From the sequence record NZ_CP115547.1: a DNA stretch of 29,894 nucleotides. One strand, given 5' to 3'. The notes under the pieces are model-generated. The model did no database searches. It saw nothing but the letters and a program-made list of their open reading frames with translations, and was not told where the DNA came from. Positions 1 through 29,894 of this stretch are shown piece after piece; the first letter of the stretch is position 1; the number at the start of each line of letters is the position of its first letter. Source of the DNA: a plasmid. A program made the translations under genes and the position numbers.

Positions 1-82
1 TTTTGTTAAAATTAACAAAAAATATTTTTATTAAAATAACAGTTTACTTTCTAGTGATTATTGCGTTATCATAGGTTACAGC

Positions 83-99
83 AATTCACAAATTAGGAG
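83..99 (+). promoter_or_regulatory. Conserved leader AATTCACAAATTAGGAG (includes the RBS), copy 1, before the PF-57-like gene
   Basis: Identical 17-mer at 3601..3617 and, reverse-complemented, at 29824..29840. Copies 1 and 3 continue identically through TTTTAT-ATG. Confidence 0.6.
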
Positions 100-105
100 T
101 TTTAT

Positions 106-1215
106 ATGAGGAGCATAAAAAAAACTATCAACAAATATCAAAACAAACTAATAGTTTTAATATCAACACTAAACTACATGAACACAACCTTTGAACAATA
201 TACTCAAAACGACATACTTCACTACTTTAACGGAAATATGAAAAGAAATGGTCAAAAACCTATTAAACTTAAAACACTACAAAACTATTTATACAAATTA
301 GAAAAAATATTCAAGGTAACTAATAACTACCACAGACATTTGGGTGTAAACATGGGAACTGAGATTTATTACTCACTTAAATACACTAAAAAAGAATGTT
401 ACCGCATCATCAATAAACACTTTAGAGATAAAAAAAAGAACAGATATAAAAATCGTGTTAATGATTACCTTAAAAAGACTTGTGTAAAAAATGGGAGTGT
501 AGAAAAATGGGAGTGTTCTTATAATATATATAATAATAAAAAAGAAGAAGAAAATAAAAAGTCTATAGAAAAACTACAAGTAGAAAAATACGCTAAAAAA
601 TGTGATTTTAAGTCAAAGACTTTCCTCTCTATTTTTAATCTAAAAGCAGAAAAAAATGTTATGATTGAAATGTTAAAAGTGGTTAAAAGGACAGAAAACT
701 TCTTTGTAAACAACAACAAAAACGGAAAAATTGATGGTATCAAACCCAAAAAAAGTAAGCTTGAAAGCAAACAGCAAGAATTAAGTAGAATACTGTATGA
801 AACAAAGATTAGCTTAAAAAATGAAGGATATGACATTAAACAATTAGAAATACAGATACAAAAGATATATGAACAGTACAAACACAAACCACATTTTGTC
901 ATAGAAAATAACAAGTACAATGACTTAAGGAATATAATAGCGAAACTTAAAAAATCAGTTGAGTACGTTAAAAAGAGCACAAGAGACGATGAAAAAAATA
1001 TTAGGAACAACATATTTAGCATACTTCTTGAACAATTAAGGCATAAATTAGACATTGAAGTCTTAGCACCAATACTAAAAAAGTATTTAGATAAACAAAA
1101 TAAATTAGAGTATAAAAAGGTATTTAATAACCAATATTACCACGAACTTTTAGAGTTAGTAAAAAATAAAGAAAATTATTTAAGATTAGGAGAATGTGCA
1201 AAACTTGTTACTTAA
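106..1215 (+). CDS. Borrelia PF-57/62-family plasmid replication protein (lysine-rich, 369 aa)
   Basis: The N-terminus (KLIVLISTLNYMN...) and size fit the PF-57/62 family. It is first in the conserved order PF-57, PF-50, PF-32, PF-49. AGGAG lies 6 nt upstream and the shared 23-nt leader precedes it. Confidence 0.55.
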   Translation: MRSIKKTINKYQNKLIVLISTLNYMNTTFEQYTQNDILHYFNGNMKRNGQKPIKLKTLQNYLYKLEKIFKVTNNYHRHLGVNMGTEIYYSLKYTKKECYRIINKHFRDKKKNRYKNRVNDYLKKTCVKNGSVEKWECSYNIYNNKKEEENKKSIEKLQVEKYAKKCDFKSKTFLSIFNLKAEKNVMIEMLKVVKRTENFFVNNNKNGKIDGIKPKKSKLESKQQELSRILYETKISLKNEGYDIKQLEIQIQKIYEQYKHKPHFVIENNKYNDLRNIIAKLKKSVEYVKKSTRDDEKNIRNNIFSILLEQLRHKLDIEVLAPILKKYLDKQNKLEYKKVFNNQYYHELLELVKNKENYLRLGECAKLVT

Positions 1216-1224
1216 GGATTTGTT

Positions 1225-1782
1225 ATGAATAGCGTATTAGAACGTCTTAAAGATAAAAAAGTTGAGATTAAAGAAAAAGAGCATAAAACTATTTTTATTA
1301 AGATAGAAAGTAAAAACAACAGAACATTGTACCATACAAAAATTATGACAGACTTTTATGCATTTGGAATTAATAAGAAAAAAAATAGACTCTTTATTTT
1401 AGTTAGAAAGTTATTTAATAGAGAGCAAATGAACGAATTTCACTTATTTCCTTTAAGAGATGACGATAAATTTTTAGGTATTTATTATAGTCATAGAAAA
1501 CCAATAAAAAACGTTCTTAGAAGATATGAAGAAAATGGTATTATTAAAACAGCCACCTTTTCAAAGGTCTATTACATAGAATTTAGATTTAAAAAGGGCA
1601 GTGTTTTTTGTTATATTGTAGGAATTTCTTATTTACTTAGAAAAGAAAAATCTCATAAAAAATATTACAATTCGTTAATTCAAACGCTTTCAAATTTAGA
1701 AAAACAAGTATATGAATTTTATAACAGAAAATTACCAGATGGAGGGATTATAACCAAATGGATAAAAAAAAACCACAAGTAA
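1225..1782 (+). CDS. PF-50-family plasmid maintenance protein (185 aa)
   Basis: Size and position between the PF-57-like gene and the ParA gene; its 3' end overlaps the parA start by 25 nt. Confidence 0.45.
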   Translation: MNSVLERLKDKKVEIKEKEHKTIFIKIESKNNRTLYHTKIMTDFYAFGINKKKNRLFILVRKLFNREQMNEFHLFPLRDDDKFLGIYYSHRKPIKNVLRRYEENGIIKTATFSKVYYIEFRFKKGSVFCYIVGISYLLRKEKSHKKYYNSLIQTLSNLEKQVYEFYNRKLPDGGIITKWIKKNHK

Positions 1783-2504
1783 TTACGATTGCATCAATTA
1801 AAGGTGGTGTCGGAAAAAGCACAAGTGCTATCATATTTGCAACACTCTTGTCTAAGTACCATAAGGTACTACTAATAGATATGGATACACAAGCATCTGT
1901 TACTAGTTATTTTTATGATAAATTGGAGGATCAGAATTTAAATCTTACAGATCGAAATATTTATGAAGTTTTAATTGATAAAATAAATATAAATTCTCCT
2001 ATTGTTAGGGTAGATGATAATTTAAGTCTGTTACCAAGTTATTTAAACTTGCACTTTTTTCATAATGATAATATTGCTTTTAAAGAGTTAAGATTTAAGC
2101 AAAGTTTAAAGTTGTTACATCGCATATATGATTATATAATAATTGATACGAGTCCGAGTTTAGATATTATTTTAACAAATGCATTAGTTGTTAGCAATTA
2201 CATTATAGTTCCAATGACAGCTGAGCGTTGGTCATTTGAAAGTTTAGAAATATTAGAGTTTTTTCTAAGAAAATTAAAATTTAATATACCTGTTTCTATT
2301 TTAGTAACTAGATTCAAAAAGAATAATACTCATAAAAATTTACTAAATATGATAAAAGAAAAAATTGGATTTTTAGGGATTATATCTGAAAGGGAAGACT
2401 TGAATAGGAGAATTGCACAAAACGATGTTTTTGATTTAAGTAAGGATTATGTAAAAGAATATCAAACAGCTATTTATACATTTTTCCGTACTACGGAAAA
2501 ATGA
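1758..2504 (+). CDS. parA: ParA/Soj-type partition ATPase (Borrelia PF-32)
   Basis: Deviant Walker A box KGGVGKST within ITIASIKGGVGKSTSAII, IIIDTSPS motif, 248 aa. Confidence 0.9.
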   Translation: MDKKKPQVITIASIKGGVGKSTSAIIFATLLSKYHKVLLIDMDTQASVTSYFYDKLEDQNLNLTDRNIYEVLIDKININSPIVRVDDNLSLLPSYLNLHFFHNDNIAFKELRFKQSLKLLHRIYDYIIIDTSPSLDIILTNALVVSNYIIVPMTAERWSFESLEILEFFLRKLKFNIPVSILVTRFKKNNTHKNLLNMIKEKIGFLGIISEREDLNRRIAQNDVFDLSKDYVKEYQTAIYTFFRTTEK

Positions 2505-2519
2505 ACAAGGAGGATAACT

Positions 2520-3077
2520 GTGAATATAAAAATAACAAAACGTGTTATTGAAAATGAAAATCAAGATCTAACTAATTTAGATGATAATAATAGGACCATA
2601 GAATATTACAATTCTTTAAAAGATAAGTTAGTGTTTAATTTTCAAAAAGAAATACTTAACAAAATAGAAAGTATGAAAATTTTAAAAGAGATCAAAGATA
2701 ATCAGTATTATAAATTAGATGGATATAATAATTTTGAAGAATTTACTAGGCATTATAAAATTGCCAAAACTCAGGCTTATGAATATTTAAAAATAGCAAA
2801 TGCCATGGAAGAAGGTTTGATTCAGGAGCAAGATATTATTAAAAATGGTATTCACAATATTATACTTTCTTTAAGAGACAAAGAAGGAACGAATATTAAA
2901 AAATCAAAACAAAATCCAATAAAACCACTTCGTTTTCAACTTAAAAGTCAAGAAAGTTATGATTATTATAAGAAAAATGCCAAATTTACAAGTTTCTTAA
3001 TGGATGAGCTTTTTTCAAATCAAAAAGATTTACTTGATAAACTTTTCAATAAGTTTAAAGAATTAAAAGGTAGTTAA
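2520..3077 (+). CDS. PF-49-family putative partition partner protein (185 aa)
   Basis: Lies directly downstream of parA with a GGAGG RBS; size and position typical of Borrelia PF-49. Confidence 0.45.
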   Translation: MNIKITKRVIENENQDLTNLDDNNRTIEYYNSLKDKLVFNFQKEILNKIESMKILKEIKDNQYYKLDGYNNFEEFTRHYKIAKTQAYEYLKIANAMEEGLIQEQDIIKNGIHNIILSLRDKEGTNIKKSKQNPIKPLRFQLKSQESYDYYKKNAKFTSFLMDELFSNQKDLLDKLFNKFKELKGS

Positions 3078-3561
3078 TGGTAAGTCTTTAAGAATAACTT
3101 GTCATATAAAACATATAAAACATGTAGAACAAAAGATTTAAAAGATGAATTCTTATATAAAGTGTTTACTAAGAAGAGATATTAGATTTTATTTTGATTC
3201 ATAATGACAAATATGTTTTTGAAGTAAAAAAGCAAAAACTTGGAAAATATGGGTACAAACCTTATTTATAGGATACCAATTATGACTTTTATTATTTTTG
3301 TTATGATATCTTGATAAGAATGTATATTTATTGTGTCATTTAAAATGATAGTTGATTTTAGTTTGGATTTATTGTATGCTAATTATTATTAGTAGTGCTA
3401 TTCATTTTAGACTATCTAATTTGTGAACGCCATTAGCAGCTTTTAGAGCTTGATTAAGTATTCTTTTAAGAGAGTATTTAATGAAGCTCTAAATTTTTAT
3501 CTGCAAGTTTAATAAATCGATATTTTATAGAATTATTTTTGATTAAAAACGTTTTATAAAG

Positions 3562-3590
3562 TTGACAAAAACTAATATTTAGTGTACTAT
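3562..3590 (+). promoter_or_regulatory. sigma70-like promoter (TTGACA-17-TACTAT) driving the RecT-like gene
   Basis: TTGACA at 3562..3567, a 17-nt spacer, then TACTAT at 3585..3590. The predicted start is ~3597, which places the conserved leader at about +3. Confidence 0.4.
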
Positions 3591-3600
3591 TTTATTTAGT

Positions 3601-3617
3601 AATTCACAAATTAGGAG
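3601..3617 (+). promoter_or_regulatory. Conserved leader AATTCACAAATTAGGAG, copy 2, before the RecT-like gene
   Basis: Exact repeat of 83..99. A partial inverted core CTAATTTGTGAA lies at 3416..3427. Confidence 0.6.
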
Positions 3618-4889
3618 ATGAATATGAATAACAATAGTTTTACAAAAACAGATATGCAAAATACAAATAATATAACCAAACCAGAAATATCAAATCCAAT
3701 AACAGATAAAATGAATTCAAGTAATATTTATGAGGTATGGGAAGCATATAAGAGTATGCATGGACTTAAGAGAATGGATGCTCAATCAGAGAGAGAAATC
3801 TTAACTTTACTGAAAGTAAATAATCTAAATCCATTCAAGAAAGAAGCATACATAATTCCATTTAATGGGAGATATACAGTTGTGGTAGCATATCAAACAT
3901 TACTTATAAGGGCATATGAGGCAGGGTATAGTAAATATAGTCTTGAATTTAAAGAAGAGATGGTTAAGACAATTAAAATTGATTCTAAGGGTAATAAGAT
4001 TATACAAGACGATTGGCAATGTACAGCTTACTTTAAATCAGAGAATGGTAATAGTTATAGTTTTTCTGTTTTATTTAATGAGTATTTTAAAAACTCACCT
4101 ATTTGGAGAGAGAAACCAACGTTTATGCTAAGGAAATGTGCAGTTAGTTGTCTATGTAGAACCTTGCCAGGAGCAGGGCTTGAGAGTATGCCATATATAA
4201 GAGAAGAGTTAGGAGATGCAGATAATCTTTATGAAGCTCATAAGGTGCAACAAATAGAATATACTAAAACTGAAAAAATAGTGACTAAAGAGATGCATCC
4301 TGATTATGAGTCTGTTACCAAAGATGATAATAATCATGTACCATCCAACCTATCAATAGAGAGCGAGGTAGATAATGACGCAAATACATTGGGAACTAGA
4401 CAAGACACAACAGAGGAAGAATCTAAGGGTGTAGAGACCCCCCCTATAGATGTAAGTAGAGTTGTTAAATCTAATAATACTATAGTAAATAAAGATAATA
4501 CAGTAGCTGTAAATAAGGATAATAAAGCTAATTCAATAAAGTTTAGTTGCTATAAAAGTCTTCTCATAGCAGCACGTAGAATGCATAAGTATTTGGTTAA
4601 TAAACCATTTGATAGTATATCGCAGATAAATGCATATTTAAATGCTATAAAGCTGGGAGATGATTCGTCCTTATTAGAGTATTTTAATATGAATAAAGCC
4701 TTAAGGAATGTTAACTATTGGATAGAACTCATAAGAGAATATATATTTAAGAATGAGCATCTTATGAGAAGGTTAGATCAGTTTGAGTCCTTTGTAGCCC
4801 TCATGCAGCACAAATATGAGGATAGTCCGCTCAAATTATTTGGATTCTTGTCACGAGAGGAAGAATTAAGATATTTATTTGGTGCATAG
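3618..4889 (+). CDS. RecT/Red-beta-family single-strand annealing protein with an extra C-terminal domain (423 aa)
   Basis: RecT-like core: ...IIPFNGRYTVVVAYQTLLIRAYEAGY...SPIWREKPTFMLRKCAVSCLCRTLP. AGGAG directly abuts the ATG at 3618, so the second ATG at 3624 has better RBS spacing and is the more likely start. An acidic linker and a ~190-aa extra C-terminal domain follow. Confidence 0.55.
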   Translation: MNMNNNSFTKTDMQNTNNITKPEISNPITDKMNSSNIYEVWEAYKSMHGLKRMDAQSEREILTLLKVNNLNPFKKEAYIIPFNGRYTVVVAYQTLLIRAYEAGYSKYSLEFKEEMVKTIKIDSKGNKIIQDDWQCTAYFKSENGNSYSFSVLFNEYFKNSPIWREKPTFMLRKCAVSCLCRTLPGAGLESMPYIREELGDADNLYEAHKVQQIEYTKTEKIVTKEMHPDYESVTKDDNNHVPSNLSIESEVDNDANTLGTRQDTTEEESKGVETPPIDVSRVVKSNNTIVNKDNTVAVNKDNKANSIKFSCYKSLLIAARRMHKYLVNKPFDSISQINAYLNAIKLGDDSSLLEYFNMNKALRNVNYWIELIREYIFKNEHLMRRLDQFESFVALMQHKYEDSPLKLFGFLSREEELRYLFGA

Positions 4890-7649: not shown

Positions 7650-8528
7650 CTAACCCTCAATATCAATAATTAATCTATTTGTAATATCAAAAACAAGTAA
7701 CTGTGATGGTTCTACGTTTATGTCTTTATTTAAATTACTCTCAAAGTCACTAATACTTGAAATATTTGTAGTTGTGTCATCTTTAGTTACTGCGTATATT
7801 TTCATACTTTTAATACCCTTAATTTCATTAACAGGAGCTGTAAAGTCTTGGTATTCAAAGTTAATACCCATCCCTGAGTAATTATTTGTAATAATTCTGT
7901 TGTAAATATCTCTTATTTGTTTATCGATGTTAAGGTAAGTATGATTTTTGATGTCTAGAGTATACTTAACTTTAAGATAAACATATTTTTTCTTACCTAA
8001 AGTAACGTTGTATACTTTTTTTTGATTTAGTTCATTGCTGCCATCAATTTCAAGCTCACCTTCAAGAATGGTACCACTAGGAATAGATGTATAAAGAGTA
8101 TTGTAAAGCTTAGCTTTAAAGAGCGAGTCCTTAATTTGATCTTTACTCTCATTAAGAAGTGATTCATTTAAGATTAGGTATATTTTAACTTTACCAGCTT
8201 GGCTTATAAGGTTAACATACTCAACTTTATCTAAGCTAAGTAGCGCTTTTATCATACCAGGATGAGTAATGCTATTTGAAGTTATGTGTTTTTGAATACT
8301 ACCGAAGAATTCACCACCAGGTTGCATCCTGTCAAAGAATAAGTTAAGTTCATTAATGATTTGCTCTTCAACAATTGAGAGTGATGTTGCAATAATATTA
8401 TAAACTGAGGATGGATCATCATTTATTATAATATTATACATTTGCATAAGGTATTCTCTTTTAATGTCTATAATGCTTTTAATATTTTGTTTTAAGAAAC
8501 CAAAATCAGGATCAAATATAATACTCAT
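7650..8528 (-). CDS. Baseplate J-like protein (292 aa)
   Basis: Size and position in P2-like order (V W J I H); 4-nt overlap with the upstream gene. Confidence 0.4.
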   Translation of the reverse strand: MSIIFDPDFGFLKQNIKSIIDIKREYLMQMYNIIINDDPSSVYNIIATSLSIVEEQIINELNLFFDRMQPGGEFFGSIQKHITSNSITHPGMIKALLSLDKVEYVNLISQAGKVKIYLILNESLLNESKDQIKDSLFKAKLYNTLYTSIPSGTILEGELEIDGSNELNQKKVYNVTLGKKKYVYLKVKYTLDIKNHTYLNIDKQIRDIYNRIITNNYSGMGINFEYQDFTAPVNEIKGIKSMKIYAVTKDDTTTNISSISDFESNLNKDINVEPSQLLVFDITNRLIIDIEG

Positions 8529-8857: not shown

Positions 8858-8923
8858 TCTTTATCCCTTTATATTTTTAACCTTTAACCACTAAAGTAAG
8901 TATAGATCTTTTTTAGCAAAAAA

Positions 8924-9562
8924 CTAACTAAGTAAATCATAAATTTTACTCCTAATCCCATAAATCCCAGCTCTACTAGATTCATCTATAACAGCTTGTC
9001 CTGTGACTCTTAAATTAGCAATAGCGTTTGTTATATCAATTAAGATATTCTTTAGAGATTGAGAGTCATTTCTAATATCAATTTTATTGTTAGATTTAAT
9101 TAGGACTTTATTCTTGGCTATTAAGTCAATGTTATTATCTGAATGTATATCGATTTGGTTATTAGATTTAAGTTTAAGTTTATGCGTAGTCTTTAATGCT
9201 ATTTCATCACAAGCCATTTCTAGGTATTTAGGATTAATGATACTTAAGATATAGAAATGGTTTTTATCAAAGTTAATGTTATCATTTTCATTAAAAAGAT
9301 TGATGCTAGATTGAAGTAGTAATACTAATTCACCTTCATTAGGGTTTATATTGATATTTGATATATTATGTGTTTCAATTTCAAGATTATCAAATTCTTT
9401 TATTATTACAATACCTTTTTGTGAAGTTGTATCAAATGTTTTAATTGTACCTATTTTAGTAATAAAAATGTTACTGTATATCCATAGTTTTATTTCCTCT
9501 TGTGTTAGAGTTGATCCATAAAAATTTTGATTCATTCTGTAAAGATCGTAATTTAGAGTCAT
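8924..9562 (-). CDS. Baseplate spike protein (gpV/gp5-like, 212 aa)
   Basis: N-terminal OB-like region followed by periodic repeats typical of a beta-helical spike (NNQIDIHSDNNIDLIAKNKVLIKSNNKIDIRND...). Confidence 0.4.
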   Translation of the reverse strand: MTLNYDLYRMNQNFYGSTLTQEEIKLWIYSNIFITKIGTIKTFDTTSQKGIVIIKEFDNLEIETHNISNININPNEGELVLLLQSSINLFNENDNINFDKNHFYILSIINPKYLEMACDEIALKTTHKLKLKSNNQIDIHSDNNIDLIAKNKVLIKSNNKIDIRNDSQSLKNILIDITNAIANLRVTGQAVIDESSRAGIYGIRSKIYDLLS

Positions 9563-11327: not shown

Positions 11328-12632
11328 TTAAGGTAGCGTAGTTGATTCGTCTCTATCACCCGTATGAGTAGTACTCTTATAATATGCATTAAGACTCTCA
11401 CCACTATCACCACCCAAAACACTAGGGAGAATTGATTTAAGTTTTGCAAAAAAGTACTCAAAAGAAAATATATTTTTAATGCCTTGTATAAGTGGATTAA
11501 TGATATTTTTTTGAAAATCAAAGCTACGGGTCCAAGTAATTATTTGTAGCAAGTATTTTGATACGGGTGTTAAAATATCACTGGTCAATTTTTTAAGCTC
11601 GTCATCTAATTTTTTAACATCACTTTCTGCTTTTTCAACTGGTCCTAAGTGTTTTGTAAGATCAAGTGAAGTAAAGTCATGCAGTACTTGTTTTAGCATT
11701 CCAGTAGCAATACTTGGTTCATAAATTACATTTGCTTCGTATTTATCTTTAGCATACTCTAAGTATTTATCCCCAAATCCTTCAAATTGGCTCATTAAAG
11801 TAAATATAGAGTCTCCTTTTCCACTTAGTAAATCAGAAACTGATGATATGGCCCCCTCACTTGAGGCGATACCACTACCTTTGATTTTGGCAGCAAGTTC
11901 AACTGCCGTGTAGAGTGTCTCTTTATTACTGATTCCCATGTTTTTAAGAGTGCTCTTAAGGACACCAGATTTATTTAAGAAGTCTTCTCGTTCTATGCCT
12001 GACTCGAATGATTTAATACTTTTTAGTTTACCCAGTAGAGTGGTTTTCTCATCACTACCGAAAAATTTAGAACTAATTAGTGACATTCTTGCTTGAGTTG
12101 ATTTTTCCTTAAGAACACCAACTATATACCCTTTAGCACTTGTAAAAGCATTAGATAGGATGTTGCCAATAGCAGAACCAATTGCAATCCCAGGAATAGT
12201 GATACTTTTGCTTGCTTTTGAGATTAATTTTCTTTTTTGTTTAGTCTCTTCTTTTAAATTTTTATACTGTAATGCTCGTAAGTCTTTTGATGACATAAGT
12301 GACCGCTTAAAAGCCTCATATCTTGCTTTTTGGAATGTATGACCTTGTTTAATTAGTTTTTTTGTTTCACTTAGTCTAAATTTTTCTACTTTTTCTCTTA
12401 AATGTTCATATTTAGTTTGTTTTTTAAGCTCACGTTTTTTTTCATTTAAGTTATATTTGATAAAATCTTTTGTGCTGCCAAGTCTTATTCGTTTTGGTTT
12501 AATTAACTTTTCTATACGAGAAATATCATTTTCTAATGATTTACGTGTTGATGCGTGATCTAGGATACCTTTAAATTTAATTGTAAATTTGTCATTCACC
12601 CTTAATACCTCACCGAGATAGAATAAGTTCAA
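11328..12632 (-). CDS. Tail tape measure protein (434 aa)
   Basis: Coiled-coil, Lys/Glu-rich N-terminal half followed by a Gly/Ala/Ser-rich hydrophobic segment (ITIPGIAIGSAIGNILSNAF); follows the chaperone pair. Confidence 0.5.
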   Translation of the reverse strand: MNLFYLGEVLRVNDKFTIKFKGILDHASTRKSLENDISRIEKLIKPKRIRLGSTKDFIKYNLNEKKRELKKQTKYEHLREKVEKFRLSETKKLIKQGHTFQKARYEAFKRSLMSSKDLRALQYKNLKEETKQKRKLISKASKSITIPGIAIGSAIGNILSNAFTSAKGYIVGVLKEKSTQARMSLISSKFFGSDEKTTLLGKLKSIKSFESGIEREDFLNKSGVLKSTLKNMGISNKETLYTAVELAAKIKGSGIASSEGAISSVSDLLSGKGDSIFTLMSQFEGFGDKYLEYAKDKYEANVIYEPSIATGMLKQVLHDFTSLDLTKHLGPVEKAESDVKKLDDELKKLTSDILTPVSKYLLQIITWTRSFDFQKNIINPLIQGIKNIFSFEYFFAKLKSILPSVLGGDSGESLNAYYKSTTHTGDRDESTTLP

Positions 12633-18895: not shown

Positions 18896-19455
18896 TATGA
18901 ACTAAGACCTCTATTACCCAATATACTTACAAGTGCTATGTATAGGTTATCGTTAATTTTAAATGCCTTTGATAATGCAACACCATTAATGGTCCTAGAA
19001 CTTGAACCTGAGTCTTTATCTATCTCACCATTTGAATCAAATTTAATTTTTACTCCTGGTGTAATATTACTTTGACTATCCTTTTTGACTACTAAGTATC
19101 CAGTAAAGTTATTTGTAATAGGAAGTATGCTAGCAGTACTAGTAAATTCATCTATATCAACACATATTCCATATAGATCAGTACCACCTCCAACCTCAAC
19201 ATGCGGTTCATAATCATCATCAAAAGATAATTTAACTCCACGTTTGTATGGATACCCTTTAAAGAAGAAATTCTCTACCCTAGCAACACTACTAGTAATA
19301 GTGCCACCTTGGTTAGCGAAGTGTAAATTTTTATCTTTAAAACCTATATCTACAGAAAAAAGCCCAGCGTCTCTATTTGGGTTCTTCATTAGGTCTTGTA
19401 TCTCTTTTACCTTTTTATCATATTCTTCTTTTAGCTGTGTTATGTTCTGTGACAT
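18895..19455 (-). CDS. Paralogue A of the triplicated family (186 aa)
   Basis: See paralogue C; its stop overlaps the start of paralogue B at 18895. Confidence 0.5.
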   Translation of the reverse strand: MSQNITQLKEEYDKKVKEIQDLMKNPNRDAGLFSVDIGFKDKNLHFANQGGTITSSVARVENFFFKGYPYKRGVKLSFDDDYEPHVEVGGGTDLYGICVDIDEFTSTASILPITNNFTGYLVVKKDSQSNITPGVKIKFDSNGEIDKDSGSSSRTINGVALSKAFKINDNLYIALVSILGNRGLSS

Positions 19456-19467
19456 AAATATTACTCC

Positions 19468-20145
19468 TTAAGCGGTTTTTTGGTTTTTAAGATTATAAAA
19501 CTGTTCTCGTCTTAACTTGTAAGCATTAACAATAGCAATATTAAGCTCAGTAAAGTTATTTGGACTAAAATTAGGATCAAGTATTGATAATTCTTCATTT
19601 GATAAGTTAAGTTTAATATCACTCTTAGAATTGATGGTATTAGCTTGTATTCTTTTCTTTATATTTACTTTAGCAAGATTAACAAGTTGTTCAAGCACCT
19701 CTCCATCTAAATGCTGTGTGTCTCGTACTTTAGCAATAGCGTAAATATCATCAGCTGGTACGTATTTTCTAACAAGCTCTCTACGTTGTGCTTGCATTAT
19801 ATCTTTTAGTGAGTATCCCTTAGCAAGAAGTGTGTCTTTATTAAAATGTGCACTTAAATGCTTACTTGCCAAAGTATCAATCTCATTAATACGAGTAGCT
19901 TCAAGTAATAATTTCTGATCTTGTTCTTCCCTTGCTTGTGCATCTGCAAGTTCACGTGAGATCCTTTCATTAATACTTAACTGTTTTGTAGAAGAATCTT
20001 GTGTCTTTGATTCTTTATATGCCATGTATTCTTCATAGTCTTTTAAACTTAAAGTAACACTCTCTAAGTTATTACTAAGCTCTCCTGTGTTTGTATTAGT
20101 AGTATCTTTACTCTCTTGTGTACTCGCCTCTATATCTTGATTCAT
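19468..20145 (-). CDS. Putative scaffolding protein (225 aa, acidic coiled-coil)
   Basis: Glu/Gln-rich helical protein lying between the portal-like gene and the capsid-region genes. Confidence 0.3.
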   Translation of the reverse strand: MNQDIEASTQESKDTTNTNTGELSNNLESVTLSLKDYEEYMAYKESKTQDSSTKQLSINERISRELADAQAREEQDQKLLLEATRINEIDTLASKHLSAHFNKDTLLAKGYSLKDIMQAQRRELVRKYVPADDIYAIAKVRDTQHLDGEVLEQLVNLAKVNIKKRIQANTINSKSDIKLNLSNEELSILDPNFSPNNFTELNIAIVNAYKLRREQFYNLKNQKTA

Positions 20146-20156
20146 AATCTCTCCTT

Positions 20157-21362
20157 TTAATTTTCATAAAAAAATAAAGCAGATCTTAACGCGTTAAGAT
20201 CTGTTTTATTTAAATAATTACTTGTTTCTAATTCCTTATATTTACGTGTTAATTCTATGAGTTTAAAGTCTCGCTCAATTTTTTCTTCTTCACTAAGTAT
20301 ATGCAGTGAATTAAACCTCATATCTAAGTGGTAATGCTTGTTTAATTTGCTATTAATAGCAACCTCTAACTTTTCTTGTACACTCTTTAAAAAGTCATAG
20401 TAATTACTTCTATCACCCTTACCATCACTACCCAGTCCCTTAACTTGTTCATTAAAGCTTCGTGTTAATGGCTCTTTTGTATCAGCACCTATTTTTGCTT
20501 TTACTAATGCTAAGGCTTCCTTAAGGTAGTTCATATCATACTTTATGACTTCCATTGAAGCATCCGTTTCACAGCTATAAAAAATCCCATTATTATCTAA
20601 ATTAGATTTAAGTCTTGCTAGCTCACTTACTAATTCATCATCGGTATTACTTATCGAAGTGTCATTATTCTCATTTTTAGACTTAGTGCTAGTAAAGAAT
20701 TCTTTAAAGAAATTACCTCTATTCTTACTCTCTTTTGACATAGCAGCAGTGGAAAGTGCATCTTTAATATGTGAGAGTGATTCGTCTTTGTAAAATAAAA
20801 AATTATGGGTTTCTATTCTCTTCTCTATCTCTTGATAGATCTTTTCTAGTAAATACACATCAAGAAGAAAGCTTTCACTGTAACATGGACTATACGCCCC
20901 AAGAATATAATCATAATTAGAGTATACGATTAACCTGCTTTTGTGTATTTTTAAGGTAGTAAACCCTGAAGAACTTATATCTTTAGCTTCACTTTTCAAG
21001 TAATAATTTATGTGACTAGACTCTGGGCCAAGGTCTTGTACCTTAGAATAATCTAGATACATAAATCCTATGGGCAGTTCACTATTAACTTCCAAGTGCA
21101 AATCACCTTTCTGGTCTGCAGTTTTAACTAAAATATACCCAACGCCATTAAACCTACAACTAATAATGCACTGCATGAGTGATTCTTTGAGCTCTAGCTT
21201 AAGTTTATCTAATTCTTCACACATAGATGTAACAGAAGAAGACGTACTTTGCAAACTAATTCCATTCTTGAGCACGTCTTCTGCTACATTCTCTATATAA
21301 TTTCTAAAAAATATTGAGTACTTGTATAAGTCTCTTGCATTTATTTTAAATCTTAAACTCAT
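20157..21362 (-). CDS. Putative portal protein (401 aa)
   Basis: Size and position downstream of the terminase large subunit in the head module. Confidence 0.4.
   Translation of the reverse strand: MSLRFKINARDLYKYSIFFRNYIENVAEDVLKNGISLQSTSSSVTSMCEELDKLKLELKESLMQCIISCRFNGVGYILVKTADQKGDLHLEVNSELPIGFMYLDYSKVQDLGPESSHINYYLKSEAKDISSSGFTTLKIHKSRLIVYSNYDYILGAYSPCYSESFLLDVYLLEKIYQEIEKRIETHNFLFYKDESLSHIKDALSTAAMSKESKNRGNFFKEFFTSTKSKNENNDTSISNTDDELVSELARLKSNLDNNGIFYSCETDASMEVIKYDMNYLKEALALVKAKIGADTKEPLTRSFNEQVKGLGSDGKGDRSNYYDFLKSVQEKLEVAINSKLNKHYHLDMRFNSLHILSEEEKIERDFKLIELTRKYKELETSNYLNKTDLNALRSALFFYEN
20173..20210 (-). terminator. 38-bp near-perfect palindrome (core CAGATCTTAACGCGTTAAGATCTG) plus U-run: candidate intra-operon terminator/attenuator
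   Basis: 38 nt with a single mismatch to its own reverse complement. On the - strand it is followed by TTTTTATGAAAAT. It lies inside the last 15 codons of the portal-like gene, 25 nt before the next gene's RBS. Confidence 0.4.
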
Positions 21363-28470: not shown

Positions 28471-29817
28471 CTAACCAGCTAAAGTATCAGGAATGTACGC
28501 ATTATATGAGGTACCTAAATTAAACCCAAGATCTTCTTTACTTATCAGATACCTAAATCTATCCTTAATAGCACGCTTGGTTGTATCCAGTACAAATAGA
28601 TTACCCCCAAACCTATAATTTACATGTTCACTAAATAAATTATCTTTAAACATATTATCTATGCATAATTTAAGCTTATCTTTAATAGATTTAGTTATCT
28701 TTGCAAGTTCTAAAGCATTATCTTTCTCAATTTTATTGATCTGTGCTTGCAAATAATTAATTTCAATAAGGCTATCCTTTAAACGCTGAGTTTCTACCTC
28801 ACCAATCTCAAGTTCAATAGACTCAACAAACTCCATAAATTCAACTCTATAATCAAGTTCCGATATATTTTTATATATATAACTATCCTCAAGAATACTT
28901 TTGATATGCACACTTAACTCCTCTAAACTGGTAGTTTTAATATCAATATCAGTTTGTGCTCTTAAACGTGTACAAATGTGATTTACTTCTCTGTCTAATT
29001 CTTTTACAAATGACATTACTTTACTTATAAGATCATTATTACGTATAATTACACAGTTGATTGCTTCATTTCCTATAAGGAAGAATAGATTCCCTTTGTC
29101 TAAACCTGTACATGCCAGTTGTATTTGTACTTGAATATAATACTTAAAGAAATACCGATTATCTAAGAAATTACCAGTTTTATTATATTCTAAAATAGCA
29201 CTGCGAAGACTTAGATTATCACTACATTTAATCTCAAGTAACTCTGCCTCTCCTTGTGTATTCACAAACCACCCATCAATTGTTGAACCAACTAAAGTAT
29301 CCTCTCCATTAATCTTTTTAAAATAGTTATATTTATCTATTCCATTGGCGTATTTATTCTTATGTAGAACCTGGATATTATCGGAATATATACGAATAAA
29401 TTCATCAAAGCCTAGGGTTTCTAACATCTTACCTTTTCTCATGCTCAAGTTATCTTCAAAAGGAATTTCTCTTCCTAAAGCTTTAAGCACCTTGCCAGTC
29501 ATTAGTTTTAAGGCACTCTCTTGGCCAACAAATATACTTCCTACCTCACTTGCACCCATACGTTTTAATGATTCTCTTTGAATACTAAAATCAACTTTGC
29601 TATTAAACTTAAAGAATTCGTTCTTGGAAATATTTGGTAGCCTGCGTCCTATTCTACTTATCTTACTTGTATTTTGTTGTGTGTTCTTAACCTGTTCTTT
29701 AGTTTGATTTACAAATCCTTTATAACCTTTAAACATTGGCTGACCATAGACACTAAGATGCCCCATCCTTACCTCTACGTTGTTATCATTTGTTTTTGTT
29801 ATTTTATTTATACTCAT
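28471..29817 (-). CDS. YqaJ/lambda-Exo-family (PD-(D/E)XK) recombination exonuclease with an N-terminal ~70-aa extension
   Basis: YqaJ N-terminal motif (LKRMGASEVGSIFVG), catalytic-region motifs (STIDGWF...GEAELLEIKC) and the family's YYIQVQIQL motif. It is the likely partner of the RecT-like gene. Confidence 0.7.
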   Translation of the reverse strand: MSINKITKTNDNNVEVRMGHLSVYGQPMFKGYKGFVNQTKEQVKNTQQNTSKISRIGRRLPNISKNEFFKFNSKVDFSIQRESLKRMGASEVGSIFVGQESALKLMTGKVLKALGREIPFEDNLSMRKGKMLETLGFDEFIRIYSDNIQVLHKNKYANGIDKYNYFKKINGEDTLVGSTIDGWFVNTQGEAELLEIKCSDNLSLRSAILEYNKTGNFLDNRYFFKYYIQVQIQLACTGLDKGNLFFLIGNEAINCVIIRNNDLISKVMSFVKELDREVNHICTRLRAQTDIDIKTTSLEELSVHIKSILEDSYIYKNISELDYRVEFMEFVESIELEIGEVETQRLKDSLIEINYLQAQINKIEKDNALELAKITKSIKDKLKLCIDNMFKDNLFSEHVNYRFGGNLFVLDTTKRAIKDRFRYLISKEDLGFNLGTSYNAYIPDTLAG

Positions 29818-29823
29818 ATAAAA

Positions 29824-29840
29824 CTCCTAATTTGTGAATT
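29824..29840 (-). promoter_or_regulatory. Conserved leader AATTCACAAATTAGGAG, copy 3, before the exonuclease operon
   Basis: The reverse complement is identical to 83..99 and is followed by the same TTTTAT spacer and ATG (29817). Confidence 0.6.
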
Positions 29841-29850
29841 AATAAAATAA

Positions 29851-29860
29851 ATATATAGCA
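29851..29860 (-). promoter_or_regulatory. Extended -10 promoter TGCTATATAT for the exonuclease/Dam operon
   Basis: The - strand reads TTTTTGCTATATATTTATTTTATTAATTCACAAATTAGGAG. TTGAAA at 29876..29871 is a possible -35. The leader motif begins just after the predicted start. Confidence 0.4.
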
Positions 29861-29894
29861 AAAATTGTTTTTTCAAAGTTTTTGTTATAATATT

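Follow-up and report, generated by a model that had tools for sequence, protein, structure and literature searches.

A plasmid-specific leader box shared by replication and recombination genes of a Borrelia miyamotoi cp32-like plasmid is the probable target of a plasmid-encoded antisense RNA

Why do genes as different as a replication initiator, an annealase and an exonuclease begin with the same untranslated leader? The question is raised by sequence record NZ_CP115547.1, a stretch of 29,894 bp (the window, meaning the whole of the DNA analysed) that is a complete circular cp32-like prophage plasmid of Borrelia miyamotoi; its first 8 kb are essentially identical to pYekat-19-cp30-4 (NZ_CP117112.1). 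A first-pass annotation, made from the sequence alone, had noticed a 17-mer, AATTCACAAATTAGGAG, in three leaders and an inverted copy of its core elsewhere, and had read it as a dedicated operator or RNA leader that co-regulates a replication-recombination regulon, rather than just a strong ribosome-binding site (RBS). We conclude that the 17-mer, which consists of a variable box and the Shine-Dalgarno (SD) sequence, is probably the target, in the 5' untranslated region (UTR), of a plasmid-encoded and plasmid-specific small RNA (sRNA) that would act in trans as an antisense repressor of translation of the PF57 operon, the annealase gene and the exonuclease operon. The proposal of a dedicated element and regulon is thus upheld, with an RNA leader favoured over a DNA operator.

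A search of the window recovered all three exact copies of the 17-mer, and Pfam assignments bore out the identities suggested for the genes behind them (Borrelia_orfA/PF57, RecT, and DUF244 with YqaJ). The leaders, their promoter-like sites and the genes that they precede are:

83..99, + strand: leader box copy 1, AATTCACAAATTAGGAG, in the 5' UTR of the PF57-PF50-PF32-PF49 operon; it adjoins and includes the SD sequence GGAG
3601..3617, + strand: leader box copy 2, AATTCACAAATTAGGAG, in the recT 5' UTR
29824..29840, - strand: leader box copy 3, AATTCACAAATTAGGAG, in the 5' UTR of the operon headed by the DUF244/YqaJ (nucP/bppA-like) nuclease gene
43..72, + strand: promoter-like site of the PF57 operon (TTTACT, 18 nt, TATCAT)
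3562..3590, + strand: promoter-like site of recT (TTGACA, 17 nt, TACTAT)
29850..29876, - strand: promoter-like site of the DUF244 operon (TTGAAA at 29876-29871, 15 nt, TATATT at 29855-29850), read by eye
106..3077, + strand: target operon 1, the PF57-PF50-PF32-PF49 replication/partition genes
106-1215, + strand: PF57 (Pfam Borrelia_orfA)
1225-1782, + strand: PF50 (Pfam DUF226)
1758-2504, + strand: PF32 (ParA)
2520-3077, + strand: PF49 (Plasmid_parti/BpaB-like)
3624..4889, + strand: target gene 2, recT, a RecT-family annealase
28471..29817, - strand: target gene 3, a DUF244/YqaJ-like exonuclease (Pfam DUF244 and YqaJ) that leads its operon

All three copies of the box sit between a promoter-like site and a start codon. 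Copies 1 and 3 share, as had been claimed, an identity that extends through the start codon; it covers 28 nt (83-110 and 29813-29840) and ends 2 nt beyond the ATG, and the two copies form a perfect inverted repeat, 136 bp apart, that spans the circle junction. Beyond the three exact copies, no match to the 17-mer was found in the window at up to 3 mismatches (0.46 expected). The 12-mer core, TTCACAAATTAG, matched exactly four times, at 85, 3603, 29827 (- strand) and 3416 (- strand), against an expectation of 0.69, and none of 100 shuffled sequences reached four. The promoter-like site of the DUF244 operon went unreported by the scan because its 15-nt spacer breaks the spacing rule; it is homologous to the TTGACA/TTGGCA promoters of other plasmids. 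Translation of recT probably starts, as in RefSeq, at the ATG at 3624, where the 6-nt spacer is normal, and not at the ATG at 3618, the first in the open reading frame (ORF), which directly abuts GGAG.

We then compared, plasmid by plasmid, the sequences preceding the PF57, annealase (RecT or ERF) and DUF244 genes in two sets: 10 further complete plasmids (8 B. miyamotoi types, B. hermsii and B. burgdorferi) and 50 loci of B. persica and minor Borreliella species, the second set containing no B. miyamotoi genome. The variable part of the leader is made up of the 10-14 nt between the transcription start and (T/A)AGGAG. Within each plasmid these 10-14 nt were the same, or nearly so, in the PF57, annealase and DUF244 leaders, and they differed from plasmid to plasmid. 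Examples of the boxes are AATTCACAAATTAGGAG in the window, AATTCATAAAATAGGAG in cp30-11, AATAC(A/G)CTTTATAGGAG in cp30-7, TACATTATAGGAG in cp29 and ATAATAGATGTTCGGAGG in B. lusitaniae. Box identity was 0.86 within plasmids and 0.58 between them across 30 cp32-like plasmids of the relapsing-fever and Lyme groups, a sample in which some related sequences are counted repeatedly, and none of 2000 label permutations attained the observed value. A search of other plasmids for this exact 17-mer, the check that the first-pass annotation had advised, would mostly fail because the motif is plasmid-specific; what holds is that the three leaders match within each plasmid.

The -35 and -10 hexamers and the GGAG that flank the box were conserved across all plasmids. 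Moreover, the PF57 promoter is unrelated to those of the annealase and nuclease genes, yet in every plasmid it is followed by the same box in the same register. The motif does not behave as a plain strong SD sequence: only (T/A)AGGAG is conserved between plasmids, and the 10-14 nt upstream of it are plasmid-specific. The boxes are also asymmetric, always reading toward the gene and abutting GGAG, and the only inverted copy is the one that lies inside the putative sRNA described below.

The box follows no maintenance protein. Between B. lanei cp32-6 (L014) and B. finlandensis lp32-6 (L017), PF57, PF50, PF32 and PF49 are 89, 98, 99 and 97% identical, respectively, and the boxes differ. In a sliding comparison of this pair, the three leaders stood out as islands of divergence within DNA that is 95-100% identical; a fourth island, intergenic, carries the fourth copy of each plasmid's own box. 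Other pairs have PF32 and PF49 that are 90-94% identical and different boxes, and the plasmids L015 and L029 have an identical box despite PF32 and PF49 that are 73% identical. The co-variation of box and protein fails in the wider sample at L014/L017, L021/L031 and L015/L029, and co-resident plasmids with 91-99% identical PF57 and PF50 differ in box. Thus, the proposal that the box is bound by PF49/BpaB, PF32 or PF50 of the same plasmid, with which it tracked in the first 11 plasmids, was dropped as the main explanation, as in the wider Lyme sample boxes differ between plasmids whose proteins are 97-99% identical, and the reverse also occurs. PF57 was also rejected as the specificity partner, since it is a mosaic protein whose N-terminal type is common to plasmids with four different boxes. 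With regard to PF57 itself, near-identical blocks are common to plasmids with unrelated PF32 and PF49, and one breakpoint falls about 10 codons into the gene; the co-resident cp32s of B. tanukii have PF57 proteins that are 91-97% and PF50 proteins that are 93-99% identical.

The inverted core at 3416-3427 was confirmed as the fourth match to the 12-mer. It had been taken for a further copy of the leader element; it reads instead as the seed of a conserved sRNA gene with mapped homologues in B. burgdorferi. The features of this locus are:

3388..3500, + strand: putative sRNA gene, about 113 nt, between PF49 (end 3077) and recT (3624), recognised by covariance model, synteny and architecture
3352..3380, + strand: promoter-like site of the sRNA (TTGATT at 3352-3357, 17 nt, TATGCT at 3375-3380)
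about 3387, + strand: predicted +1 of the sRNA
3410-3429, core 3416..3427, + strand: seed, with the anti-box CUAAUUUGUGAA in the plus-strand RNA, the exact complement of leader positions 85-96
3442..3498, + strand: long hairpin (3442-3493) and T-run (3494-3498), an intrinsic-terminator-like 3' end of the sRNA

A module of this kind is found in every plasmid, beside the PF57-PF49 cassette and upstream of the annealase gene, with the same layout in 30+ plasmids. It is co-directional with the annealase gene, whose promoter follows immediately 3' of it, and comprises a TTGATT-17-TAnnCT promoter, a 5' hairpin, the seed, an A-rich stretch, the long hairpin and a T-run; the TTGATTTTA-type -35 of the promoter is kept in all plasmids. 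The ends of the sRNAs were extracted automatically, with exceptions set by hand. In the seed, a conserved CUACCU precedes the complement of the box, giving an anti-SD and an anti-box. The seed keeps a fixed place, inverted with respect to the leader, and the annealase start follows about 150-220 nt downstream. The region 3380-3505 of the window folds with -37.9 kcal/mol (z -5.3 against shuffles), and in an alignment of 28 sequences the long hairpin shows compensatory double changes in 12 of its 17 pairs.

Generic tools picked up little of this. The promoter scan did not list 3352-3380, the homologous promoter of B. burgdorferi B31 having a mapped transcription start site (TSS) 6 nt past the -10. 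A generic terminator scan of 3000-3700 returned nothing, because its loop and GC rules exclude a long AU-rich hairpin, and Rfam gave no match at the gathering threshold over the whole window. An ungapped search for inverted copies (at most 2 mismatches in 14) found them only in the window's own plasmid type; a search restricted by position, together with reading of the sequences, found the inverted copy in all types, in some with indels.

The inverted copy co-varies with the leaders. It reads TTCACAAATTAG in the window, ATCATAAAATAGG in L003, ACACTTTATAGG in L006, AACATTATAGG in L009, TTACTAAATAAAGG in L014 and TTATCATAAAAGG in L017. The window and L003 differ by two substitutions that are matched in all four copies. 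Likewise, the two substitutions that distinguish the window box from that of cp30-11 are both present in the three leaders and, as the complement, in the seed.

Several individual plasmids bear on the arrangement of these elements. In B. miyamotoi p1999-cp24-2 (L007, 3560-4600), the PF57 leader, the DUF244 leader and the seed are of the window type, the box of the ERF leader, TAGTACATTATAGGAG, belongs to a different plasmid type, and the annotation splits the ERF gene into fragments; the plasmid looks like a recombinant whose mismatched target is decaying. A B. yangtzensis contig (L030) has PF57-PF50 followed directly by DUF244, without PF32 or PF49, and two other loci (L036 and L039) are without PF50; in L030 and L036 the three leaders and the seed still match. 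The orientation of the PF57-PF50-PF32-PF49 cassette with respect to the annealase and nuclease genes is inverted between relapsing-fever and Lyme cp32s (window 1-3620 compared with L005 and L062 of B. burgdorferi). Across this inversion the sRNA stays with the annealase gene, and the promoter-leaders of the annealase and nuclease genes form the flanking inverted repeats.

The site of the module is one at which transcripts have been mapped. Five B. burgdorferi B31 cp32s carry minus-strand intergenic sRNAs, SR0979, SR0982, SR0990, SR0996 and SR0999 (Popitsch 2017, supplement), the positions of which are exactly those of the module. Both ends have been mapped for these five and for SR0984, SR1004 and SR0923 (lp56), most of which are flagged as also present in Arnold 2016 (Petroni 2023, Supplementary Data 2). 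The mapped TSS of SR0979 of cp32-1, 18932, is the exact base that we predicted as +1 (AGCGUAGUU...). SR0979 is a 76-nt RNA with the seed CUACCUAUGGUAAUU, which is complementary to the 5' UTR of the PF57 homologue BB_P30, mapped as 28 nt, AAUUAUUAAUUACCAUAGGAGAAAAAAC (Petroni 2023), and to the ERF and nucP leaders. A covariance model was built from 19 Lyme-group sequences and no relapsing-fever sequence. Its best match in the window was 3388-3500 (33 bits, E about 0.017), and it matched the syntenic site in all relapsing-fever plasmids with E-values, which are rough, from 1.7e-4 to 0.1. A weak second match in the window, at 20116-20212 on the + strand (27 bits, E about 0.16), lies antisense to the late-gene operon and recurs at the same place in L003 and L006; it is probably mere hairpin resemblance.

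On the basis of position, architecture and covariance-model score, the window element is assigned to the SR0979 family of sRNAs. Like its members, it lies upstream of and co-directional with ERF/RecT, beside the PF57-PF49 cassette, and has a promoter-like site of the same type and the same 5' hairpin, seed position and hairpin. It differs in that the B. burgdorferi members are catalogued transcripts, whereas the window element, from the relapsing-fever group and with about 50-60% sequence identity to them, is known from sequence alone; it also sits after PF49, and not before PF57 as in B. burgdorferi, because the cassette is inverted. Our literature search found no function or target assigned to SR0979-family sRNAs.

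The pairing of each sRNA with its leaders was predicted using RNAduplex. Duplexes between the sRNA and the translation-initiation region had a mean energy of -18.7 kcal/mol for cognate and -10.6 kcal/mol for non-cognate combinations, a difference that none of 5000 permutations attained. The cognate sRNA ranked first of 32 for 50 of the 90 targets and among the top three for 72; that it was not first for all of them is largely due to near-duplicate plasmids. When five cp32s that share B. tanukii HK501 as their host were compared, the best partner of each was its cognate sRNA (5/5). The SD sequence was covered by the duplex in all cognate pairs (102/102). In the window, the energies were -20.9 kcal/mol with the PF57 leader, -16.9 with that of recT and -18.1 with that of DUF244. 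The PF57 pairing comprises 12 Watson-Crick pairs and one G.U; U3415 is able to pair in this way with the SD G that comes next. The seed at 3416-3427 lies 3.3 kb from the PF57 leader at 83-99 and does not overlap with it; the RNA would thus be trans-encoded, with three targets.

The same arrangement was found on replicons other than the prophage plasmids:

L026, 8917-9032, + strand: lp28-8-type module
L032, 9042-9178, + strand: lp28-8-type module
L047, about 8880-8990: lp28-8-type module
L061, about 7660-7790: lp28-8-type module
L052 and L056 (B. yangtzensis and B. sinica lp54), about 9120-9215 and about 9160-9255, respectively, + strand: lp54 modules
L012, about 9090-9260: module of a B. persica plasmid, with a seed complementary, with G.U, to its own PF57 leader

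On the lp28-8-type linear plasmids, the module lies directly 3' of PF49, and its seed, CCUUAAUUUGUG, is complementary to the plasmid's own PF57 leader, GCACAAAUUAAGGAG, with a 12-nt exact match. This element is close in sequence to the window sRNA and is also matched by the covariance model; no annealase or nuclease gene is present nearby. On lp54, a seed, CUCUUAAUAUAAG, follows the PF49 homologue and pairs with the PF57 leader of the same plasmid, CUUAUAUUAGGAG, over 13 bp including one G.U; a hairpin and a T-run come next. A conserved RNA-type stem-loop immediately 3' of BB_A21 (PF49) of lp54 was described earlier as 'Sequence #5', with no target proposed (Delihas 2009; PMC2674063). The stem-loop that we find after PF49 on lp54 is this 'Sequence #5'; it has the same place relative to PF49 as the window sRNA, and what is added here is the upstream seed complementary to the lp54 PF57 leader. 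Just after BB_A21/PF49 on lp54 of B31 there is also an undescribed small feature, 'BB_A22' (BB_RS07755), with a basemean of about 3500, several-fold over that of the PF49 gene; this feature may correspond on lp54 to the sRNA. Since the pairing of sRNA and PF57 leader also occurs on lp54 and lp28-8, without recT or exo, control of PF57 looks primary and the recombination genes look like targets added on the prophage plasmids. The PF57 leader thus looks like the common target across replicons.

How might the element work? We propose that an sRNA made from about 3388-3500 (+ strand) would pair via its seed with the leaders of the PF57-PF50-PF32-PF49, recT and DUF244/YqaJ operon mRNAs. As the duplex covers the RBS, the most likely effect would be a block of translation initiation, possibly alongside mRNA decay or cleavage, or premature termination. 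As the plasmid encodes the sRNA, the amount of the RNA would rise and fall with plasmid copy number, and this would provide a negative feedback on the replication initiator operon of the inhibitor-dilution kind. Finally, the differences in seed and boxes from plasmid to plasmid would keep the control of each co-resident replicon separate and make the pair a compatibility determinant. It is from the sequences, their co-variation, the predicted pairing and the homology to mapped B. burgdorferi sRNAs that we infer pairing and repression in vivo and a role in copy number and incompatibility. The cp32 fragments bbp29-bbp32 replicate and displace only the cognate cp32 (Wachter 2023; PMC9839762). These fragments include the sRNA and the PF57 leader and are without PF49, and their cognate-only displacement fits a private loop of seed and box.

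A number of observations weigh against this interpretation or limit it. The duplexes are short and AU-rich, spanning in the window 12-13 bp at -17 to -21 kcal/mol. Wobble-compatible transitions outnumbered pair-breaking ones 36 to 14, a count confounded by relatedness and by the conserved SD region. Partition-function calculations gave no clear enrichment in seed accessibility, the unpaired probability of the duplex-forming stretch being 0.39 against an sRNA average of 0.35. The mapped 3' end of the B31 sRNA, at 76 nt, is within the 5' arm of the big hairpin and not past the T-run. Spermidine RNA-seq data show inconsistent trends for sRNA and PF57, opposite on cp32-1 and cp32-8 and in the same direction on cp32-6 (Petroni 2023 data). 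The stretch 18932-18729 has been annotated as the 5' UTR of BB_P29 (ERF), so that the element could act mainly in cis (Petroni 2023). BpaB, moreover, is reported to affect the expression of nucP and ssbP, and a DNA-level layer may therefore coexist. Other transcript ends lie close to the proposed targets. RNA 3' ends have been mapped 6 nt into PF57 ORFs, on B31 cp32-7 at 19123 (+) and on lp54 at 11757 (+), and very abundant ones about 150-170 nt into BB_P30, on cp32-1 at 19264/19283 (+) (Petroni 2023, supplements). We speculate that these ends might arise through premature termination or through cleavage guided by the sRNA, and that the 3' end of the sRNA within its own long hairpin might reflect such processing.

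The main rival reading is that the boxes might instead be DNA operators or centromere-like sites of a plasmid-specific DNA-binding protein, most plausibly the ParB analogue BpaB (PF49), which would bind where each of the three transcription units starts, as well as at the fourth copy ahead of recT, and would serve partition as well as global regulation. In the B. miyamotoi sample the box type does follow PF50, PF32 and PF49 (in the window and L007 these are 87, 96 and 97% identical, and the box is the same), plasmids with 95% identical PF57 carry different boxes, and four sites in two inverted pairs flanking promoters would suit such a protein; reviews also put parS near the 5' end of PF57 and report the BpaB effect on nucP/ssbP. 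We nevertheless regard this explanation as unlikely. The Lyme-group boxes change while the four proteins stay 89-99% identical (L014/L017), and the same box occurs with 73% identical PF32 and PF49 (L015/L029). The sites are asymmetric, with constant orientation and register to the SD, and the fourth copy lies within a mapped sRNA, between two hairpins. The lp54 and B. persica pairs need G.U wobbles, which are meaningless for DNA identity. In addition, the cp32-encoded BpaB variants that have been tested all bind one common erp sequence, and fragments without PF49 retain cognate-specific incompatibility.

Alternatively, the sRNA-like element might do no more than serve the annealase gene in cis, as its 5' UTR or an attenuator: transcripts from the upstream promoter would end at the hairpin or continue through it, the anti-box would sequester the recT RBS, and the matching PF57 and nuclease leaders would be by-products of recombination between leader modules that are repeated. 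This would agree with the published annotation of 18932-18729, with a list of 3' ends preceding ORFs in which that of the sRNA is included (Petroni 2023), and with the position of the element, which on cp32-type plasmids always immediately precedes the annealase gene and points the same way. The annealase gene, however, is served by a strong promoter of its own, located between hairpin and leader, and on lp54 and lp28-8 the module and its complementarity to the PF57 leader are present with no annealase downstream. The PF57 promoter is unrelated and still has the same box in the same register everywhere, and in L007 the seed matches the PF57 and nuclease boxes while the degraded ERF gene bears a foreign one; we thus give a purely cis-acting element little credence. 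An absence of any regulatory function seems very improbable to us. In that case the boxes would be short repeats that drift freely and are homogenised by gene conversion, perhaps via the plasmid's own RecT/ERF-exonuclease, or simply an efficient translation-initiation region. Recombination does occur here: the annealase and nuclease upstream regions of Lyme-group cp32s are near-identical inverted repeats of at least 70 nt that include the first codons, and the inversion of the cassette between Lyme and relapsing-fever plasmids shows recombination across them. In the window, however, the identity of copy 2 with copies 1 and 3 ends exactly at the 17-mer and the flanks have diverged, and between close relatives the box is an island of divergence in 95-100% identical DNA, contrary to what neutral drift would produce. 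The fourth copy co-varies even though its context is unrelated and its orientation reversed, and a pure RBS role gives no account of box differences between plasmids that use the same ribosome. An antisense RNA acting in trans on three leaders thus remains the reading that we prefer.

Antisense RNAs that control translation of plasmid rep genes include CopA/CopT of R1, RNAI of ColE2 and of IncB/I, and RNAII of pMV158. The putative RNA of the window resembles them as a small plasmid-encoded RNA complementary to the rep leader and RBS, replicon-specific and, here by prediction, a natural incompatibility determinant with a dose that tracks copy number. Those RNAs, however, are countertranscripts of the target DNA itself, so that their complementarity is automatic, whereas the RNA of the window is encoded 3.3 kb from the PF57 leader, and its 12-20-nt seed must co-evolve with three separate targets, two of them recombination genes; being trans-encoded with three targets, it falls outside the countertranscript class. 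A second parallel is offered by the c4 antisense RNA of P1/P7 (immI) and the CI RNA of the satellite phage P4; the heteroimmunity of P1 and P7 arises from co-varying changes in RNA and target. As is proposed for our case, a short processed RNA of a (plasmid-)prophage has a seed that pairs at the RBS of early genes, and one of the targets follows the RNA gene in the same direction of transcription. The difference is that c4 and CI control an antirepressor or early-operon transcription and not an initiator/partition operon, and there is no homology in sequence or structure. KorB-OB of RK2 and omega of pSM19035 represent global regulators that are also centromere proteins. They and BpaB at erp Operator 2 share with the proposed RNA the use of a plasmid maintenance factor to co-regulate several operons of one replicon, nucP and ssbP being genes on which an effect of BpaB is reported. 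Their recognition is of DNA by protein, however, the BpaB variants tested share one bound sequence, and the box does not co-vary with PF49 in the wider sample.

A broader generalisation seems possible, and we put it forward tentatively. Every PF57/62-type replicon (cp32, lp54, lp28-8 and possibly all of the about 20 plasmids per cell) may have its own antisense sRNA by PF49 that pairs with the RBS region of its own initiator mRNA. The pair of RNA and leader, and not ParA/BpaB, might then be the primary determinant of copy number and incompatibility, with new groups arising via coordinated replacement of seed and box; on prophage plasmids the RNA might also curb Red-like recombination/replication genes as an RNA immunity factor. 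Up to about 20 replicons are stably maintained in a Borrelia cell, among them 6-12 nearly identical cp32 prophage plasmids, and no parS has been defined in the literature for any Borrelia plasmid. If the proposal is correct, the replicon-specific sRNA and initiator leader would be the missing specificity element among sister plasmids in one cell, a family of abundant and so far uncharacterised sRNAs would gain a function and targets, and the displacement of only the cognate cp32 by shuttle vectors with bbp29-bbp32 would be explained. In practical terms, it would bear on the design of compatible or displacing vectors and on the curing of specific plasmids in Lyme and relapsing-fever spirochaetes.

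One further structure lies between the leaders of copies 1 and 3. At the circle junction (29841-29894 and 1-82), the intergenic region between the divergent DUF244 and PF57 genes has a near-palindrome, TTTTTTGTTAA AA TTAACAAAAAA, at the centre of a larger imperfect palindrome, which is a possible candidate for an origin or a partition site.

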